This document shows positions 9,203-45,899 of a stretch of DNA of 64,000 bases, in pieces; position 1 is the stretch's first letter; the number at the start of each line of letters is the position of its first letter. The position numbers were made by a program, and so were the translations under genes. The notes beneath the pieces are model-generated. The model saw nothing but the letters and a program-made list of their open reading frames with translations, did not search any database and had not been told where the DNA came from. The DNA comes from an uncultured Acidobacteriota bacterium (lineage in GTDB: Bacteria > Acidobacteriota > Blastocatellia > RBC074). The stretch lies in assembly GCA_963796275.1 (NCBI GenBank), contig CAWCKY010000001.1, forward strand, positions 1,088,001 to 1,152,000, given 5' to 3'.

Positions 9203-11603
9203 GTCGGGTAAGGGGGCGACGTTGCCGCCGCGCGCCCTCCCCTCAGAACTGATCGTGCCGGTTATCCCGGCAATCAGCTCAAGCCTTTCCAACGCCCTTT
9301 TCAGGACGCGGTTTCACCACCACTAACTTTTGGCTATGGACTTCTTGATGGCATCCAGGGTGTAGCAAGACCAGATTACTTGCGCCGTCTGTTCCACCGT
9401 GAGATTTCCAAATGAGGTGATGCGTTTGCCATCCCGTCAGCTTGGTGATTCTCTCCTGGCAGACCGGACATTTCCCCTCTTGCTCTCTCCACAGAAACAG
9501 CAGCATTTTGAGCCCTCTGAGCGACCCCTCTGTCTTAACATCGAGGCGCTGCTCAAAATACCTTTCCCAGTGTGGATCATAGGGATTGGCTTCACCTTTG
9601 ATTTTGGTGTGCCTGCGAATGGGCGTGTAGGCGAGGCTGTAGAGCCTGATTTGCCTTGTATTTCCGCGCAGTCGCATTTCCCCGCTAAAGACCCAGTGGC
9701 GATCCCCGATGGTCTGGAAATATTTCTCCTTGATCCATTGGCGTGATTTACGCGGATGACGGCGGCGACACCACTTCCACAGCGATTTGAAGGTCGCACA
9801 GTCTATCTTCTGAAAAGTCTGTTTACTCGATGCGTGCCGGTGGTAGTTTGCCCAGCCCCTCAGGATCGGGTTGAGCATCCAGATCAAAATCCCCGGCGCG
9901 ACGTGGCGGTTGGCTTTGATCACTTCGCGGATTCGCTTCAGCAGGCTGTTGATGCTCTGTTGAGACGGATGGATCAGTGTCTTCCCCTGACCATATTCCC
10001 GGATGTGCTGACCGAGGAAGTCAACCCCCTCAGAGATATGTACGATCTTTGTCTTCTCCGGTGAGAGTTCCAGTCCCCTGATTTCGAGAAACTCTTCAAT
10101 CAGCGGCATGACCTCGTTCTCCAGTAGTTCTTCCGAACTGCCGGTCACGATGACGTCATCGGCGAATCTCACCAAATTGACTTTGGCCTGTCTGCCTGGG
10201 CGTGTGTTCTTCTTGAACCTTGGGTTCTTGCTCAACACCCGTTCCAGGCCATCGAGCGTCCAGTTCATCAGCACTGGCGAAATCGTCCCGCCCTGTGGCG
10301 TCCCGGCTTCGGTTTCATGCCACTCACCTTGCTCGATAAATCCTGCTTTCAGCCATTTCTTCAGGGTCTGCTTGTCCATCGGAACGTGGTCCAAGAGCCA
10401 CTGATGGCTGATCCTGTCGAAGCAGGATCGGATATCGCATTTGAGTATCCACTTGGCCGAACCTTTTCGGCACAGCATCCGGAAGGCATGGTCGGTGGCG
10501 TCCACCGGTGCCCGACCTATCCGAAAGCCATAAGAGTTCGGGTCAGCCTTTGTCTCCGCAATCGGATCGAGCGCCAGTAAGTGTAATGCTTGCCGGGCTC
10601 GATCGTTCATGACGGGAATACTCAGGCCGCGCTGTCGTCCGTCACTTTTGGGAATGTAGACACGCTTGAGTGGTTGGGGGTGGTAGCCCCTCACCTTCAA
10701 TTCGTCTACAGCTGTTGCTTTTTTCTCCGGTGTGTCCCAGATCACTCCGTCTACACCGGGAGTCTTTTTTCCTTGGTTCGTAGTCACTCGTTTAACGGCC
10801 AGACATCGGGCGCTGAACGAGTGGGTGAGCAGACGTTGCAGGGCTCTGACCTTGTTCCATCTGCCCTCCTGTGTTGCCTTGACGATACGTGACTGGAGCC
10901 GACGCACGTTCTGATTGACTGTTCGCCAGCTGATGGTCGTCCAGTCGATCTGCCCGTTGGGGACCGCACCAGCCTGTGTCTCCACTGCTGCCATCTGCTT
11001 TGTCTCCGGTGTCGGTAGCTCAGTTTTCTCGCCGGGAAAGACCAGATGGAAGTCTGCCCGCTTTCGCGTGGAGTGATCTTGTCGAGTGGCGCAACTCCTA
11101 TCCGTCTCATTACAAGGCGGCTTTCGCTTTTTCCATCCTCCTTTGCCCGCACTCCTATCGGCTCGCCTCACGGCTCGCTTTCCCATCCGGGAGAAGTACG
11201 GGTTTACCACGTTCCGCAATTGCGACCTGACGGGTTAGGTCTCGCCTATACGCCGGTAGCCCAACGTCTGCGGTGGCGGACTTTGGAGCCTCCACCCTGG
11301 CTACTTACCTTTTGGTTCAAGCCTCTCAGCCGGTTTGGCTTGTCGGATCTCACGACGCTTGCGGCGATTCACATTTGTTGACCATACCGTCGAACCCTAG
11401 CCCCCGACCGCCTTCCGGCTGGCAGTCACAGCTTCCTCTCGCGATTCGGCTGCCAATCTCTCACGATTGGGGTTACATTGTTCCGAGAGCTTCACACCCC
11501 GCCGTTGCCGGCGACGCATGTCCCGGTAGGGTACTTGCGGCAGAACGCAAGGTGATCTCATAAATTCAAGGATCACAGTCGAAATTGCGACTTCGTGTCG
11601 CAC
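9203..11603 (-). mobile_element. Group II intron (IIB/chloroplast-like class), 2401 nt
   Basis: 5' end GTGCGACACGAAG at 11603; domain V GAGCTGATTGCCGGGATAACCGGCACGATCAGTTC with AGC triad; domain VI ending CTTACCCGAC at 9203; removal makes the right transposon IR collinear with the left IR without a gap. Confidence 0.92.
9279..10994 (-). CDS. ltrA: Group II intron reverse transcriptase/maturase with HNH endonuclease
   Basis: VRRLQSRIVKA N-terminal region, TPGVDG, GTPQGG.ISP, RFADD, maturase X domain (LNPILRGWANY), C-terminal CPVC...HH...NLVLLHPGCH; ATG at 10994 preferred over the ORF-track start 11219. Confidence 0.95.
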   Translation of the reverse strand: MAAVETQAGAVPNGQIDWTTISWRTVNQNVRRLQSRIVKATQEGRWNKVRALQRLLTHSFSARCLAVKRVTTNQGKKTPGVDGVIWDTPEKKATAVDELKVRGYHPQPLKRVYIPKSDGRQRGLSIPVMNDRARQALHLLALDPIAETKADPNSYGFRIGRAPVDATDHAFRMLCRKGSAKWILKCDIRSCFDRISHQWLLDHVPMDKQTLKKWLKAGFIEQGEWHETEAGTPQGGTISPVLMNWTLDGLERVLSKNPRFKKNTRPGRQAKVNLVRFADDVIVTGSSEELLENEVMPLIEEFLEIRGLELSPEKTKIVHISEGVDFLGQHIREYGQGKTLIHPSQQSINSLLKRIREVIKANRHVAPGILIWMLNPILRGWANYHRHASSKQTFQKIDCATFKSLWKWCRRRHPRKSRQWIKEKYFQTIGDRHWVFSGEMRLRGNTRQIRLYSLAYTPIRRHTKIKGEANPYDPHWERYFEQRLDVKTEGSLRGLKMLLFLWREQEGKCPVCQERITKLTGWQTHHLIWKSHGGTDGASNLVLLHPGCHQEVHSQKLVVVKPRPEKGVGKA

Positions 11604-39666: not shown

Positions 39667-42468
39667 TTAGAAGTTGATCTTCAAGCCAAACCGCACCAGG
39701 CGCGGGTTCAATATCCTGCTCGGACGCTGGTAGGCGGGGCCGAAGGCAGTCACCATACTCGTGACCGCGTTGCCGTTCCCGAGGTTGAAGATATCTACCA
39801 GCGGCTCGATGCGCAGCGACTCGCCATATTTGAATATCTTGCCGAAGCGCAGGTCGACTATGTCAACGCTATCGAATCGCAAATCGCCGCGTGGCAACAG
39901 CGCCACGGTCACCGTGTTCTGGTTGAGCGGCGTCGTCGGGCTGTTGCCAAAGACGTTGGTCGGCTGCACTGGCTGCCCGGTGAAGTGGCGGTAGTTGAGG
40001 CTGGTCGTGATCCCATACGGAAACTCGTAGGTGCCGGCCAGTTTTGTCACGTAGGTTGCGTCCAGGTCCAGATAATTATCGGCGCGGTTGATGTCCAGGT
40101 TCGGATTGTTGAAATCGTCGCCCAGACCGCGATCAAAAAGCCCCTTGTTGCGCTGGATGGTCAGCCCGGCCAAAAGCTGCCAGCGGGCACTCATCCGCTT
40201 GACGGCCGTGAACTCCACGCCGTGATAGGCATTGTCGTCCAACTCCTCAATATTCGTATAGAGGAAATCGGCGCGCCCCACGGTCCCCGCGCTCTGGTTG
40301 AAGATCGTCAATGGCTGATTGGTCAACGGATTGGTCGTTTGCACCGGCGCATACTGATCCCGCGGGACAGCCATATTGCGGCGGCTGATCAGTTGCTTAT
40401 GTGTCCTGTAGAAGTAATGCACTCCGATCCGCAGATCGCGATAAATCTGCTGCTCGTAACTGATACCGACTTGATCGGAGTAGGGGCGCTGCAAATCGGG
40501 ATCGATGCGCGAGACAATACCACCGAAGCGTCCCGTCACCGCGCCGAATTCCCCCGGCTGTGGGATCCGATCTCCGTTGGGATCGGTCCAGACGCGGCTC
40601 TCACCACCGAGGTTATTTGGGTTGACTGCTTCCGCCAGACGCGACCCTTCCACCAGGTAGAAGCGGCTGAAACTCCCTCGCAGCACACCCCGGCCTTTGC
40701 CGAAGAGATCGATGGCCGCCCCGAGGCGCGGTGAGACGTCGTTCCACGCGATCAGATCCGCCGTCCGTTGAAATGAGCGTTCCGGGAAATAGATTCCCGC
40801 CGGACTCTGCTGTTCCGGATTGAAGCTGACGAAGCGGTCGTAGCGCAGGCCGGCGTTGATCGTGACCCGGCCGAGCGTCCAGGCATCCTGGAGGAAGACG
40901 GCGCTTTGATGCGCGATACTGTTGGCGCGCACTGGCGCGTTGAGCAGGTCGACGCGGAGCGGAACGTTGTTGTTGAAGAAGACGTTAATCGCACCATTGG
41001 CATCGAACCAGTTGCCGTTTCGGAAGGTCCCCCACTCGAAACCGGCGCGGAAATTGTGCGTCCCGGATTTAGAGGCGCCGGCGAAGTAGGAAGCGGTCGA
41101 AGCAACTTGCCAATGCTGCGCCGGATTCAAGAAACTGTTTTGCGCCGCCCCGGTCAATGTCGAGAGCGTCACATCCGCGATCGAGAGATCGCCAGGCTTG
41201 ACGGTCGGCTGGTAGCTGAGTGGGAAGAGCAGATGCATATAGCCGATACGCGAATCGACCGAGAGCTTCGACGTAGGGAACGTCACCCACTGTCCGGTCA
41301 GGATGTAGGCTGGCTCGATCTGCAGCGCGGCGGCCTGATCATCTACAAACTCGAAGGCAGCGCTGCGCCGGAAGAAGCGGTTCTGACCGTTGTAGAGCCA
41401 ATTGAAGTTCAGCTTGTTCTTGGGTGTGAGCGCATAATCCAGCCGCAGGGTGGTATCGGTCTGATGGTTTATGTCGGCGACGTTGCCGCCCGTGCGCCGG
41501 CGCACGCTGAGCACGCTTTCGTTTATGTCATAGCGCCGGTAAGAGCCGAACCACCAGAAGCGATCCTTAATGAACGGGCCGCCCGCGTTAATAGTCGTGT
41601 CGCGCAGCATGTTGATCGGCAAACCGACGAGGATGCCCTGGCCGCGCAGATCACCGGGAATGTTATCGCTATTGAGCGCGCGCGTGGTGTAATAGCCGGC
41701 TGCGCTGCCGTGAATCCGGTTGCCACCAGAGCGTATGACATTGTTCATGTAGGTTCCGCCAACCCCGACCTCGGCCGGAGCATGATCGGAGACGACTTGA
41801 AACTCCCCTAGTGAATCGTGATCGAAATAGAAGGCCGTGAAGCCACCGCTGCCACCGGGCCAGTTCATATTCAGGCCGTTGACCGCATAGACGTGCTGTC
41901 CGGACCGACTGCCGTGAATAGACATACTGGCCTGTTGATAGCTCTCTGATCCGCCTACGTCGTAGGTTGTCAGTGTCGCTCCCGGCGCCTGGGCGACGGT
42001 CGACCAGGTGTCGCGACCGCTCGGGATATCCTGCAACATCGAAAGATCGAAGCTGGTGGCGTTCGAAACCCCTTTCACATCTACCACTGGGGGAGCGCCC
42101 GAGACGGTGACCGTGGTTTCCAGCGCGCCTACTTCCAGCGTGATGTTGACCGTCGCTGTGAAGCCCGCATTGACCACTATCCCTTTGTGCAAAGCGGTCT
42201 TGAAGCCATTCATACTGACTGTCAAGTCGTAGGCGCCCGGGGGGAGGGCCTCGAACAGGTAGGCACCGTTTTCAAGCGTCCCGGCCTCGCGCTTACCCAT
42301 GAGCGTGGCACCCTCGACCATCACCGTCGCACCGGGGATTGCCGCTCCGCCGGCGTCAGTAATCGCACCGGTGATCTTTCCGTGGACAGCGACCTGCGCG
42401 CAAATAGTGGTGGCGCCGTACAGCAGGCCCGCGCAGACTAATAGAATCTGACAGGGACGTGATTTCAT
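39667..42468 (-). CDS. TonB-dependent receptor (Oar-like, carboxypeptidase-regulatory N-domain)
   Basis: Signal peptide; G.ITDAGGAAIPGATV; FLQDAW, GLRYD, SPRLG; C-terminal PR.VRFGLKINF. Confidence 0.9.
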   Translation of the reverse strand: MKSRPCQILLVCAGLLYGATTICAQVAVHGKITGAITDAGGAAIPGATVMVEGATLMGKREAGTLENGAYLFEALPPGAYDLTVSMNGFKTALHKGIVVNAGFTATVNITLEVGALETTVTVSGAPPVVDVKGVSNATSFDLSMLQDIPSGRDTWSTVAQAPGATLTTYDVGGSESYQQASMSIHGSRSGQHVYAVNGLNMNWPGGSGGFTAFYFDHDSLGEFQVVSDHAPAEVGVGGTYMNNVIRSGGNRIHGSAAGYYTTRALNSDNIPGDLRGQGILVGLPINMLRDTTINAGGPFIKDRFWWFGSYRRYDINESVLSVRRRTGGNVADINHQTDTTLRLDYALTPKNKLNFNWLYNGQNRFFRRSAAFEFVDDQAAALQIEPAYILTGQWVTFPTSKLSVDSRIGYMHLLFPLSYQPTVKPGDLSIADVTLSTLTGAAQNSFLNPAQHWQVASTASYFAGASKSGTHNFRAGFEWGTFRNGNWFDANGAINVFFNNNVPLRVDLLNAPVRANSIAHQSAVFLQDAWTLGRVTINAGLRYDRFVSFNPEQQSPAGIYFPERSFQRTADLIAWNDVSPRLGAAIDLFGKGRGVLRGSFSRFYLVEGSRLAEAVNPNNLGGESRVWTDPNGDRIPQPGEFGAVTGRFGGIVSRIDPDLQRPYSDQVGISYEQQIYRDLRIGVHYFYRTHKQLISRRNMAVPRDQYAPVQTTNPLTNQPLTIFNQSAGTVGRADFLYTNIEELDDNAYHGVEFTAVKRMSARWQLLAGLTIQRNKGLFDRGLGDDFNNPNLDINRADNYLDLDATYVTKLAGTYEFPYGITTSLNYRHFTGQPVQPTNVFGNSPTTPLNQNTVTVALLPRGDLRFDSVDIVDLRFGKIFKYGESLRIEPLVDIFNLGNGNAVTSMVTAFGPAYQRPSRILNPRLVRFGLKINF

Positions 42469-42818: not shown

Positions 42819-44017
42819 GTACTTTGGCAACTAAGTCTTCAGATATCTTGAATTATCGGGCAAAACGTTCTGATAATGACGATTCAATTTGTTTCTCGCA
42901 GACTCGATCGAAAATTGCCAGTTGATTTTGATCTTCTTTTCGTTACGTTCTTTGATAATCGCCGAGACATCTCTCTCCAGTTGCTTAATAGTCGGGATGC
43001 GCCGGTTTAAACACTGACGCGCCACCGCCGAGAATTCACACTCGATCATGTTGAGCCAACTGGCAGACTTGGGCGTATAGTGAAACTCGAAACGTTGCGC
43101 CAGCGCAAAGGCCTCCGCCGCCGGCAAGTTTTGATAGAAGGAACCGGCGTGGTGGGTGTTTAAATTGTCCAGCACGAGTCGAATCTTTTTGGCCTCCGGA
43201 TATGCTGCTGCCAGTCTCTGAGCGAACTGCGTGAACTCTTTCTTAGTACGTTGCCAAGAGACCTGCGCGAGTCTTTGCCCGGTCAGTGGTTCGATGGCAG
43301 CTAGCACTGCACACGATCCGTTCTTCTGATAAGCGTAATGCTCTTTGCGGACTTGGCCGCTTTGCATCGCCAGCGGTTCAACCTCCTCCCCGATCAAGAA
43401 GCACGGGCGCTCGTCGAAGCAGACCACCGGGTAGTTTGGATCATAGGCCAGCGCATACAACCGGAGAATCTCCTCCATTTGCGCGAGAAACTTCGCGTCG
43501 ATCTTACCAAGACACCAAGTCTTGTTGAGGTGCGGTTTCAGTTCGTTTTTTTCAGGATGTTGCCAATATGGGTCTTGGATATCTCTTCGCAATAACCCAT
43601 CTCGACCACCTTATCGGCCAACAACCGCAAAGTCCAACGCACATGCCCTTCGGGCGCTTCGCTGCAGGCCAAGGCTGTGATCTTCGCTCGCAACTTGCCG
43701 TCGATCTCCGGCGGACGTCCCGACCGCGGGGCATCTTCCAGGCACTTGAGGCCTTGCTCTTTGTACTTATCACGCCAGGCCATGACCGTCACTCGGCTGA
43801 CGCCGAGGGTTTCGGCTACCGCTTCGAGTGTCTTGCCGCGATCAAGTTCGAGCAAGCCCGTGGCTCGCTTGAAAGTTTTGGCCGGTAATTTCCCCTTGGA
43901 GATCAGGGACTCCAGATAGTCCCGGTCTTTTGCTTTTAATTTGACGTGCCGTTTTTTCATTTTCCCATGCTCTGGGAATGGTGATCCGCGTGTCAAATCA
44001 CATAGTTGCCAAAGTAC
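42819..44017 (-). mobile_element. IS630-family insertion sequence, 1199 bp
   Basis: Perfect 15-bp IR GTACTTTGGCAACTA (42819-42833 and 44003-44017), flanked by TGA on both sides (empty site CTGAG). Confidence 0.9.
42831..43996 (-). CDS. IS630 transposase (HTH ORF + DDE ORF joined by a frameshift at an A7 run)
   Basis: ORF 43538-43996 HTH (DAPRSGRP, RWTLRLLA); ORF 42831-43592 DDE (CFDE, LDNLNTH, SWLNMIE); AAAAAAAC in the overlap near 43546-43552. Confidence 0.9.
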
Positions 44018-44359
44018 TGAGCAACTATGATCCTATTTAGTTTTCGAAATAAGTCCCCTGAATGGAGACTGCCAATACATACTTATAAGATTTAGTAATG
44101 TCTGGAAATGTAGCGAAACTGTAGATCACTATCTTCATTTTTCTACTCATAGACACCCCTGATCTGCTTCGGAAGAGCCGGATGTTTGTAGGATTCGATC
44201 CAATCTCTAATCGGCTCCAAGGGCCGGATGTATAATCTACCGCGCCAACCGTTATCGCCTTCACTCCTATGACGCTTTTTACACTGTCACAATCCTATTT
44301 CCGAGCCGCTCGCGAGCGAGTTGATTTGATCGCATCGATTCTGTTAGAAATAAGTTAAC

Positions 44360-44585
44360 TCATTGACGAGGACAGACCCCTCCGAGAGGCTTTCTCGAAA
44401 CGGAAGCTGATATGAACGCATCAGCAGGCCCTAGTAGAGAAAGACGTCACGCTACGAGACAGCGCAAACGAGAGCCGCATCGGTCGGAAGCTGGATGGCA
44501 CCGCCGCAATAAGATTCGAAGGATTTGTGGTTCCAGCGGAAATTCTCCGGATAAACCGGATAACCTGGTAAAAGGATTTTCCGCT
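44360..44585 (+). ncRNA. Translational T-box riboswitch, ultrashort Stem I, Asp (GAC) specifier
   Basis: Stem I GAGG-ACAGACC-CCTC; Stem II CTTTCTC/GAGAAAG with GAA/AGTA S-turn; IIA/B pseudoknot; antisequestrator GCTGGA-TGGCACC-GCCGCAA/TTGTGGT-TCCAGC; sequestrator AGCGGAAA/TTTCCGCT enclosing the RBS. Confidence 0.85.
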
Positions 44586-45899
44586 ATGGAACAAACATTC
44601 AAGCAGCGCGCGCTCATTACTACCCTCGATCAATTCATCGATCAGGAAGTTCTTCTTCGAGGCTGGGTCTACCGGCTTCGCCTCCTGGCCAAAACTACCT
44701 TCATCGTCATCAGAGATTGTTCGGGAGACGCGCAGTGCGTGGCCGAATCCGAATTAATCAAAGACCATCATCTCAAGCTCGATGATTGCATTGAGATACA
44801 GGGGTGCGTCAGGGCCGATCAGCGCTCAAAAGCAGGCTATGAAGTTCTGATTAACCAGGTCAGAGTGTTGAATCGCTCGGCCACCGGTTTACCATTCAAC
44901 TCGTCCTCGAAGATTGAAGCGGTCGGGCAGGAGACCTTGATGGAATACCGTCCTCTGGCGGTTCGCAATGAGGCGATCGGAGATGTGTTTCGGGTTCAGG
45001 CCGCGGCGCTGAATTATTTCAGGGAATATCTGGCGAGCCGGCGCTTCACGGAGATCATCACCTCGAAAATAGTAGCATCCGGGACTGAAGGTGGAACGAA
45101 TCTCTTCGAGCTGAAATATTTCGACCGCGTGGCCTATCTGGCGCAGAGCCCTCAGTTCTACAAGGAGCATGGAGTCGCGGGTTTCGAGCGAGTCTATGAG
45201 ACGGGGCACGTTTACCGTGCGGAGCCTCACGCGAGCAGTCGCCACCTGACCGAGTATTACTCGCTCGATTTCGAGGTCGGGTTCATCGATGGGCCGGAGG
45301 ATGTCATTCAGATCGAGCGAGAGCTACTGTCCTACATCTTCGAGCGACTCAACCAAGAGTACGGACATATTCTTGAGCGGTATAGAGAAAATCCACTCCC
45401 GTCGATGCTCGAAGTTCCGATCTGGGAGTTCGGCCGATGCCTCGAACTTCTGAAAGAAAACTTCGGCCGGACGGATCTGACAGATGACCTCGATCCGGAA
45501 GGGGAGCGGCAGTTATGCGCTCTTGTGGAGAAGGAGGCGGGAGTCGCCGCAGTCTTTGTGATCGGTTATTCGCTCGCTAGCCGGCCTTTTTACACGGCGC
45601 CGCGCGAAACGGGAGGAACGCCAGGGGCGGCGCAAAGCTTCGACCTTTTGTTTCAAGGAGTCGAGATAACGACCGGCGGACAGAGATTACATCGCAGGGA
45701 AGATCTCGAGGCGGCGCTGCGCGGACGCGGGATTGATCCGGTCGGTTTTGAGAGCCATCTCAAAATGTTCGAGCTGGGTATGCCGCCGCATGGCGGGCTC
45801 GCCATCGGGCTCGAACGTCTGACGAGTCAAATCCTCGGACTGCGCAATATACGTGAAGCAACGCTCTATCCGCGTGACCGCTATCGGATAACGCCTTGA
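44586..45899 (+). CDS. aspS: Aspartyl-tRNA synthetase, archaeal/eukaryote-type (possibly non-discriminating)
   Basis: OB-fold (GWV..R...F..IRD), EGG..LF, AYLAQSPQFYK, YRAE...SRHL.E, PPHGG..IGLERL; 437 aa with no bacterial insertion domain; ATG 44586 after AAGGA. Confidence 0.92.
   Translation: MEQTFKQRALITTLDQFIDQEVLLRGWVYRLRLLAKTTFIVIRDCSGDAQCVAESELIKDHHLKLDDCIEIQGCVRADQRSKAGYEVLINQVRVLNRSATGLPFNSSSKIEAVGQETLMEYRPLAVRNEAIGDVFRVQAAALNYFREYLASRRFTEIITSKIVASGTEGGTNLFELKYFDRVAYLAQSPQFYKEHGVAGFERVYETGHVYRAEPHASSRHLTEYYSLDFEVGFIDGPEDVIQIERELLSYIFERLNQEYGHILERYRENPLPSMLEVPIWEFGRCLELLKENFGRTDLTDDLDPEGERQLCALVEKEAGVAAVFVIGYSLASRPFYTAPRETGGTPGAAQSFDLLFQGVEITTGGQRLHRREDLEAALRGRGIDPVGFESHLKMFELGMPPHGGLAIGLERLTSQILGLRNIREATLYPRDRYRITP

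Follow-up and report, generated by a model that had tools for sequence, protein, structure and literature searches.

The subject of this paper is the leader of aspS, the gene for an aspartyl-tRNA synthetase (AspRS), in a 64,000-nucleotide stretch of DNA from an uncultured bacterium of the Acidobacteriota (contig CAWCKY010000001.1; the whole stretch is hereafter called the window). We think it highly probable that this leader, at about 44357-44590, is a short-Stem-I, translation-controlling T-box riboswitch specific for tRNA-Asp. A first-pass annotation, made from the letters of the window, had proposed a translational T-box with an ultrashort Stem I and an Asp specifier at this place. The reading is carried by the structural elements themselves, by covariation among related leaders, by homology to known T-boxes, by two competing, near-isoenergetic folds of the expression platform and by the link to aspS across phyla.

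What does the leader contain? A complete set of T-box elements lies within 44357-44590, ahead of aspS (table 1). The elements named in the first-pass annotation sit, by direct reading of the sequence, where it had placed them, the register of the first pseudoknot stem excepted. The GA dinucleotides that it saw flanking Stem I, at 44365-66 and 44384-85, are part of a K-turn pattern. Two elements go beyond those it listed, namely the K-turn C-stem and Stem III. Stem I is ultrashort, as had been claimed: a 4-bp helix carries a 7-nt loop that holds GAC, and 74 positions of the Rfam T-box model RF00230 are deleted. Judged by where the Rfam alignments place the deletion, the GAC appears to sit next to the 3' strand of the helix above the K-turn, on its 5' side and with one base between. 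This is where canonical T-boxes keep their specifier.

Table 1. Features of the aspS leader and its surroundings (positions of the window; RBS, ribosome binding site; ORF, open reading frame).
Feature	Position	Strand	Details
K-turn at Stem I base	C-stem CUC 44359-61 / GAG 44386-88	+	variable 3-nt bulge 44362-64; tandem G.A 44365-66 with 44384-85; sequence pattern
Stem I	44359..44388	+	4-bp GAGG 44368-71 / CCUC 44379-82; 7-nt apical loop ACAGACC 44372-78
Proposed Asp specifier GAC	44375-77	+	Stem I apical loop, followed by C44378
Stem II	44390..44443	+	lower helix CUUUCUC 44390-96 / GAGAAAG 44437-43
Stem II S-turn	GAA 44397-99 opposite AGUA 44433-36	+	
Stem II middle pairs	GG 44402-03 / CC 44429-30	+	
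Stem II upper helix	GCUGAU 44406-11 / AUCAGC 44420-25	+	
IIA/B H-type pseudoknot	44445..44464	+	IIA CGU 44445-47 / ACG 44454-56; IIB CGCU 44450-53 / AGCG 44461-64
Stem III	44475..44487	+	3 Watson-Crick pairs CCG 44475-77 / CGG 44485-87; invariant AA 44488-89 next
Discriminator (anti-sequestrator) helix A1	44490..44537	+	GCUGGA 44490-95 / UCCAGC 44532-37
T-box bulge UGGCACC, 7 nt	44496-44502	+	between A1 and A2
Helix A2	GCCGC 44503-07 / GUGGU 44527-31	+	enlarged 19-nt loop
Sequestrator hairpin	44532..44590	+	AGCGGAAA 44535-42 / UUUCCGCU 44578-85, enclosing RBS AAGGA 44572-76, ending at ATG 44586
aspS	44586..45899	+	archaeal-type non-discriminating aspartyl-tRNA synthetase, 437 aa, start ATG 44586
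Putative promoter	44321..44350	+	-35-like TTGATT 44321-26, 18-nt spacer, -10-like TAGAAA 44345-50; inferred
IS630-family transposase	42831-43996	-	two overlapping ORFs, 253 aa + 152 aa, matching C- and N-terminal parts of the NCBIfam model

If the leader has the parts of a T-box, is it related to known T-boxes by descent? RF00230 (Rfam release 15) aligns the leader end to end, although below its gathering score of 93 bits. Given a 196-nt stretch, the model spans 44355-44537 with its positions 2-219 and scores 22.8 bits (E 0.0018). Two of the nine related loci scanned whole with the model gave matches over positions 1-219: a cyanobacterial locus (L042) at 53.2 bits (E 8.6e-9) and a Steroidobacteraceae locus (L057) at 51.3 bits (E 2.8e-8). 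In each alignment 74 distal Stem I positions of the model are replaced by 5 nt, and the other elements are in register: the K-turn, the GAA/AGUA of Stem II, the stem after Stem II, Stem III and the T-box core. From these alignments with their gap in Stem I we conclude that the leader is a T-box homologue from which the distal Stem I has been removed. The 74 missing positions presumably cover the specifier internal loop and the distal platform that binds the tRNA elbow. In our own comparison with the consensus quoted in PMC11297988, the T-box core agrees at 10 of 13 defined positions.

Related loci came from an AspRS search of species-representative genomes, which gave 80 loci (L001-L080). In most of them a GGAUGG(N)ACC motif with near-identical flanks stands 50-115 nt ahead of the start of the AspRS match, with the Stem I motif some 120 nt further upstream. 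For covariation we aligned 69 distinct leaders, that of the window and those of 68 loci. The 12 loci excluded were L001 (internal duplication), L060 (odd spacing), L041 and L055 (no Stem I motif), L010 (no exact bulge-side motif), L067 and L073 (no upstream DNA), and L074, L075, L077, L079 and L080 (no motif). Given this alignment only, RNAalifold predicted the K-turn C-stem, Stem I, three Stem II helices, the second stem of the pseudoknot, Stem III, A1, the 7-nt bulge and A2; compensatory changes are present in 31 of its 41 predicted pairs. The full structure, counted with the first pseudoknot stem added, has 45 pairs. Its cells are paired at 96.2%, and 33 of the 45 pairs show compensatory changes. 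When the partners were slid by 1-3 columns only 35-45% of cells were paired, and none of 500 shuffles, which disregard relatedness, reached any of five measures. Individual pairs of Stem II, for instance, pass through five or six pair types. Because of the slide control and these many independent pair types, a phylogenetic artefact is unlikely.

The individual helices behave as follows. The C-stem shows double compensatory changes in 3 sequences, and the pair G44368-C44382 is replaced by A-U in 4. All 14 counted pairs in the three Stem II helices have compensatory changes, with 95-98.6% of cells paired. Stem III is a 5-bp helix in the family, with compensatory changes at 5 of 5 pairs and 95.9% of cells paired. 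A1 is 100% paired, two of its pairs having a compensatory change, and A2 is 99.3% paired. Together with the RF00230 homology, this covariation across the aspS leaders of relatives supports the T-box identity proposed in the first-pass annotation.

The single-stranded bases were counted in 74 leaders aligned to a family covariance model, which derives from the 69 leaders and has 192 positions and 42 pairs. Of the 74 rows, 71-73 retain the tandem GA bases. The GAA of the S-turn and the U-A of AGUA are near-invariant, and the AA preceding A1 is invariant. In the T-box bulge UGG is present in 74 of 74, followed by C (64) or U (10), never by a purine, and then by ACC. The loop of Stem I reads A/N/A/G/A/C/C, its second base alone varying (C 57, U 10, A 6 of 73).

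Several leaders depart from this pattern. In L001, the closest relative, the module of Stem III and discriminator is tandemly duplicated (about 2830-2990), and the bulge of the first copy is altered to UGGCGCC; the family model was placed on this first copy (2733-2925; 158.5 bits). Weak or divergent matches were obtained for L041 (2339-2510, 40.9 bits), L055 (2742-2978, 73.4 bits) and L060 (2654-2940, 50.5 bits). L041 has unrelated sequence in place of Stems I-II, and the two Bacteriovoracaceae leaders, L055 and L060, are much diverged or expanded.

In one respect the structure had to be redrawn. The first-pass annotation had built the IIA/B pseudoknot from a GUC/GAC and a CGCU/AGCG stem. The latter is right: IIB has compensatory changes at all five counted pairs. 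The former is out of register, the conserved stem being CGU/ACG, with 95.4% of cells paired and U-A replaced by C-G in six sequences. The helix GUC 44446-48 / GAC 44458-60 is present in the window; in the alignment it has 63.2% of cells paired, its third pair being unpaired in 51 of 65 sequences, and we rejected it. RF00230 takes the same CGU/ACG helix as its stem after Stem II. In L072 and L076 direct reading finds CGG...CCG where others have CGU...ACG; realignment with the covariance model left the pseudoknot of these two shifted. Drawn in this way, IIA and IIB make up an H-type pseudoknot that is compact, about 20 nt, and fits the description of IIA/B in PMC7583486.

Four acidobacterial leaders (L030, L051, L058 and L061) lack the IIA/B pseudoknot and keep all other elements. 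They are about 170 nt long, with 98-100 nt from Stem I to the bulge instead of about 120, and their genes share a 9-row AspRS clade with Vicinamibacterales sequences.

Which tRNA might the leader read? The GAC in the loop is conserved in the homologous leaders: it is invariant in 73 of 73 aligned leaders, and AAC is never seen. The gene downstream encodes AspRS, its product scoring 467.5 bits (cut-off 353; residues 7-437) against the NCBIfam model NF003483, aspartate--tRNA(Asn) ligase. Both points support the Asp specifier proposed in the first-pass annotation. Its remark that the C of the bulge fits a G73 discriminator is supported too, for the bulge is always UGG(C/U)ACC and both C and U can pair with G. 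tRNA-Asp carries G73; so does tRNA-Asn.

The expression platform was studied in 70 leaders with hand-picked starts; dropped were L037, in which no start was found, the divergent L055 and L060, and the truncated L067 and L073. The start codon follows A1 by 19-48 nt (median 24). The window has the longest distance, 48 nt, because of a 9-nt tandem duplication, CCGGAUAA, in the hairpin loop. Its two copies lie one base apart (44547-54 and 44556-63, + strand), and the closest relatives L001, L002 and L009 do not have it.

Are there two folds that compete? Under constrained folding the two conformers are close in energy, with a median difference of 0.65 kcal/mol, and for the window each has -28.8 kcal/mol. 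In the alternative fold at least three of the six A1 3'-strand bases pair downstream in 60 of the 70 leaders. In the window all six are taken up by the sequestrator hairpin, in which UCCA 44532-35 pairs with UGGA 44587-90 (UG of the start codon included), GCGGAAA 44536-42 with UUUCCGC 44578-84 and, further in, UCC 44546-48 with GGA 44574-76 of the RBS. The hairpin that the first-pass annotation had called mutually exclusive with the T-box helix, since it uses the A1 3' strand and encloses AAGGA up to ATG 44586, is therefore present as described.

The complementarity behind this hairpin is greater than in control windows. The duplex of the A1 3' strand plus 7 nt with a 22-nt RBS/start window has a mean energy of -10.85 kcal/mol, against -5.57 for coding-region controls. 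It outdoes all 20 controls of its own leader in 36 of 70 leaders, and in 47 of 70 no more than one control does as well. Opening positions -13 to +5 is predicted to cost, on average, 6.8 kcal/mol when A1 is enforced and 13.6 when it is prevented; the gap is 1 kcal/mol or more for 64 of 70 leaders and zero or negative for two. For the RBS of the window the predicted cost rises from 6.2 kcal/mol with A1 in place to 12.6 kcal/mol when A1 cannot form. In these models the switch would act mainly on the base of the hairpin and on the start codon.

No terminator-like site is found on the + strand inside the window leader, as the first-pass annotation had said of a U-tract terminator, and in 63 of 70 leaders the stretch from A1 to the start never has five U in succession. 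The start 19-48 nt after A1, the leader of the window free of a terminator and the hairpin complementarity above that of control windows all point, by prediction, to the translational mode that had been proposed.

Six leaders of one clade (L007, L016, L017, L018, L022 and L078) have a CUCC/GGAG(G) hairpin and then five U, 8-10 nt before AUG. This hairpin resembles an intrinsic terminator overlapping the Shine-Dalgarno (SD) sequence; its stem is clear of A1.

How might these parts work together? On the known T-box mechanism, the GAC of the leader would pair with the GUC anticodon of tRNA-Asp. The UGGC of the bulge would pair with the free 3' GCCA end of uncharged tRNA-Asp, stabilizing A1 and A2, the anti-sequestrator. 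A1 and A2 would keep UCCAGC 44532-37 off the start region, so that the ribosome could load on AAGGA/AUG and more AspRS would be made. When tRNA-Asp is charged, the amino acid would block pairing of the 3' end with the bulge. UCCAGC and the next bases would then pair just before and across the AUG, the long hairpin would close over the RBS, and translation would fall.

Is the leader strictly linked to aspS? The family model was run on the window and the 80 loci, 604 kb in total. Of the 78 loci that have upstream DNA, 73 gave a strong match, one each and in every case directly ahead of aspS. The leader of the window scored 158.8 bits (44352-44559), and the model found no second copy in the 64 kb of the window. 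One weak stray match (E 0.31) was recorded in the 604 kb. The loci without a leader are L074, L075, L077, L079 and L080. Since these five form one AspRS clade, with support 99, a single change explains presence and absence.

The AspRS tree (FastTree, 81 proteins, local supports, no outgroup) places the leader-bearing genes in separate supported clades: Pseudomonadota (8 rows), Cyanobacteriota with Melainabacteria (3), Ignavibacteriota/Kapaibacterium (3), Bdellovibrionales (L072 and L076, support 100) and a large Acidobacteriota group. The Bacteriovoracaceae genes L055 and L060 branch apart, close to the base of the region of the tree that holds the Bdellovibrionales. Nested inside the Acidobacteriota are Eisenbacteria, Eremiobacteraceae, three 'Gammaproteobacteria' and one Verrucomicrobiia row almost identical to an Acidiferrales row; these oddly labelled rows may reflect transfer or binning errors. 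The AspRS of the window is sister to its nearest relative, a Blastocatellia sequence with 89% identity, and nested within the Acidobacteriota. This position within the Blastocatellia, and an adjacent ADOP-family permease gene, bear out the earlier guess that the host is an acidobacterium. The claim that the architecture occurs in another phylum than the Actinobacteria thus holds for the Acidobacteriota and proves too narrow, as several further phyla carry the leader.

The Verrucomicrobiia and Acidiferrales rows just mentioned (L033 and L047) come from metagenome-assembled genomes labelled 'Verrucomicrobiia' and 'Acidiferrales'. Their AspRS are almost identical (branches of 0.014 each) and their leaders near-identical, which suggests a very recent transfer, or a mislabelled or misbinned contig.

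What weighs against a tRNA-Asp-specific translational T-box? Part of the reading rests on analogy: that a tRNA binds, which tRNA it is, and which way and how far the switch moves are what we infer from the known T-box mechanism. The Rfam scores lie well short of the cut-off. At gathering thresholds the output for the whole window holds no T-box, a group II intron being its sole match, and a scan of 501 nt at E<=10 gave no T-box, a spurious snoRNA match alone. With RF00230, seven of the nine related loci scanned had no match, and neither the window nor the two matching relatives (51.3-53.2 bits) reached the gathering score; their E-values are significant and the alignments full-length. The shortfall arises because Stem I is deleted and a terminator is absent.

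The loop of Stem I raises a second difficulty. Its AGACC is invariant, AGA and ACC being as constant as GAC, and since these bases never vary covariation cannot confirm which triplet is the specifier. T-boxes have a conserved, functionally critical purine 3' of the codon (PMC7583486); here that base is C in all 71 rows with a letter (C44378 in the window). On the ribosome, C1400 of the rRNA fills the equivalent stacking role (PMC7583486). There is no tRNA gene in the window and no tRNA-Asp in loci L001-L060, where two tRNA-Leu alone were found. The platform, too, is less clear-cut at the SD than at the start codon. At least 3 nt of the SD core are paired in 34 of 70 minimum-energy folds of the 'on' state and in 42 of 70 of the 'off' state, so that, in these models, the inner hairpin may still mask the SD once A1 forms. 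Finally, the copy in the window is somewhat atypical, with a 3-bp Stem III, a 19-nt loop on A2 and the 9-nt tandem duplication in the sequestrator loop.

These points leave room for other readings, of which two keep the T-box and change what it does. Could it read tRNA-Asn, or tRNA-Asp and tRNA-Asn both? GAC would then pair with the GUU anticodon by way of a G.U at the first codon position, and the enzyme, being non-discriminating, charges both tRNAs. That the gene exceeds the cut-off of an aspartate--tRNA(Asn) ligase model is in keeping with this, and the C or U of the bulge does not separate Asp from Asn, G73 being common to the two tRNAs. We nevertheless regard this reading as unlikely: in 73 aligned leaders GAC is invariant and AAC never present, nothing in our data supports tolerance of the G.U, and the S-turn of Stem II is described as a monitor of codon-anticodon geometry (PMC7778990). 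Alternatively a T-box homologue might act chiefly on transcription termination, intrinsic or Rho-dependent, or on mRNA decay. The six hairpins of one clade with their five U close to the AUG could be cited in its favour. However, the leader of the window has no terminator-like site on the + strand, 63 of 70 leaders are without the U run, and the alternative helix lies consistently over the RBS and start codon at a short distance from A1; control chiefly at these other levels is improbable.

The two remaining readings dispense with a working T-box altogether. In E. coli translation of thrS is controlled by an operator, a tRNA-like leader to which the gene's own synthetase binds and in which a hairpin mimics the anticodon arm. 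AspRS might likewise repress translation by binding to a tRNA-like hairpin of the aspS leader, and such an operator would offer what is seen here, a short stem with a 7-nt loop shortly before a synthetase gene. But the loop carries the codon GAC and not the anticodon GUC, and therefore is no mimic of the anticodon arm; moreover, the remaining leader aligns to the T-box model, including a UGGN bulge for which such an operator has no need. We give this reading very little credence. Might the window hold a chance resemblance, or a decayed, non-functional remnant? Its Stem III is weak, it has insertions, an IS630 element lies some 270 bases upstream, and folding of the single sequence is no better than that of shuffles (z = -0.79; 45 of 200 shuffles fold equally well). 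Yet the leader scores 158.8 bits against the family model with all conserved motifs intact, aspS has an intact ORF with 89% identity to its nearest relative, and promoter-like hexamers are kept, all of which makes decay or chance very hard to credit. A riboswitch for tRNA-Asp that controls translation remains the reading we prefer.

How does the aspS leader compare with the T-boxes it most resembles? Sherwood et al. reportedly described in 2015 translational ileS T-boxes of Actinobacteria with a short or 'ultrashort' Stem I. The first-pass annotation took ultrashort-Stem-I translational T-boxes with an AUC specifier to be established for actinobacterial ileS, and the literature agrees: translational T-boxes with an intermediate or 'ultrashort' Stem I, among them M. 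tuberculosis ileS with its AUC specifier, are treated in PMC7583486 and PMC11297988. The structures from Mycobacterium tuberculosis and Nocardia farcinica were likened to the aspS leader by their descriptions, not by sequence. In both kinds a short Stem I carries the specifier in its apical loop, has a K-turn at its base and lacks the distal tRNA-elbow platform. They also share the S-turn of Stem II, a compact IIA/B pseudoknot, Stem III and the discriminator of A1, bulge and A2; an RBS sequestrator in place of a terminator; near-isoenergetic conformers; and insertions in helix A2, which PMC7583486 notes for translational T-boxes. They differ in specifier and gene (GAC for Asp ahead of aspS, AUC for Ile ahead of ileS) and in their hosts, which for the aspS leader are Acidobacteriota and other Gram-negative phyla, not Actinobacteria. 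They differ also in the base after the codon, C in the aspS leader as against a conserved purine (A19), and in the four related aspS leaders that do without the pseudoknot.

With the canonical transcriptional T-boxes of RF00230 the leader shares the T-box core, UGGN bulge, K-turn, S-turn, pseudoknot and Stem III, in the same order, and an NNC codon, which according to TBDB is preferred for two-codon amino acids (PMC7778990). Unlike them it lacks the 74 Stem I model positions and an intrinsic terminator, and it and its relatives score 22.8-53.2 bits, less than 93. The likeness to the thrS operator is one of logic: feedback on a synthetase gene at translation initiation through a structured leader beside the RBS. 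That operator has a protein ligand, whereas the aspS leader carries a codon in its loop and a bulge suited to bind the 3' end of a tRNA.

Has such a leader been described before? Asp is among the specifier families of TBDB; the search with its translational (class II) model was confined to reference genomes of Actinobacteria and to class-I hits whose Stem I is truncated (PMC7778990). A survey of 2008 has T-boxes for Firmicutes, Actinobacteria, Chloroflexi, Deinococcus/Thermus and two Proteobacteria (leuA); its Table 3 gives none for Cyanobacteria or Bacteroidetes/Chlorobi, and Acidobacteria stand outside that table (PMC2494555). In the full-text literature we found no earlier description of an aspS T-box class outside the Firmicutes; TBDB, the full alignments of Rfam and key T-box papers lay beyond the coverage of that search. 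The leader is best filed as a new specificity, Asp, within the translational short-Stem-I type, the T-box kind itself being known. A wider claim, on which we find the balance about even, is that of an undescribed cross-phylum class of Gram-negative Asp T-boxes that travels with archaeal-type non-discriminating AspRS (in this sample in Acidobacteriota, Gammaproteobacteria, Cyanobacteria/Melainabacteria, Ignavibacteria and Bdellovibrionota), has a pyrimidine for the 'universal' purine beneath the codon-anticodon helix and in some lineages lacks the IIA/B pseudoknot. Much less likely is a bolder extension in which GAC would sample both tRNA-Asp and tRNA-Asn, the two substrates of the enzyme.

T-boxes are treated as mainly a Gram-positive device. 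That picture would be broadened by a near-invariant Asp T-box ahead of aspS in Acidobacteriota and no fewer than four further phylum-level clades. Because the Rfam cut-off of 93 bits misses the aspS leaders, they go unannotated. They also supply natural variants for the study of mechanism: a C for the conserved stacking purine, members without the pseudoknot and one with a duplicated discriminator. And they raise a regulatory question, that of the control of an enzyme which feeds Asp-tRNA-Asp and the tRNA-dependent route to asparagine.

Where does the gene begin, and what surrounds it? The start of aspS is placed at 44586, where homologous AspRS proteins align from residue 1. The ORF as listed starts at ATG 44412 and has 495 aa; its 58 extra residues (44412-44585, + strand) are the riboswitch translated in frame. 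Automatic annotation could thus bury the aspS leader inside an over-long coding sequence. A promoter consensus scan found 0 sites. The putative promoter of table 1 would, to judge from its position, begin the RNA a few bases ahead of the K-turn, and in most related leaders compared a TAnAAn-type hexamer starts 12-14 nt upstream of the conserved ACUC.

Downstream, aspS adjoins the ADOP-family permease gene. Upstream, the IS630 element lies about 270 bases from the leader, on the opposite strand; its split ORFs indicate, by their arrangement, a frameshifted insertion sequence or one with programmed frameshifting. Upstream of this element a 933-aa ORF (39667-42468, - strand) has no NCBIfam match at E<=0.001. 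The group II intron match, to D1-D4-7 (RF02012), lies at 11400-11552 on the - strand (117.8 bits, E 3.6e-24), some 33 kb from the aspS leader.

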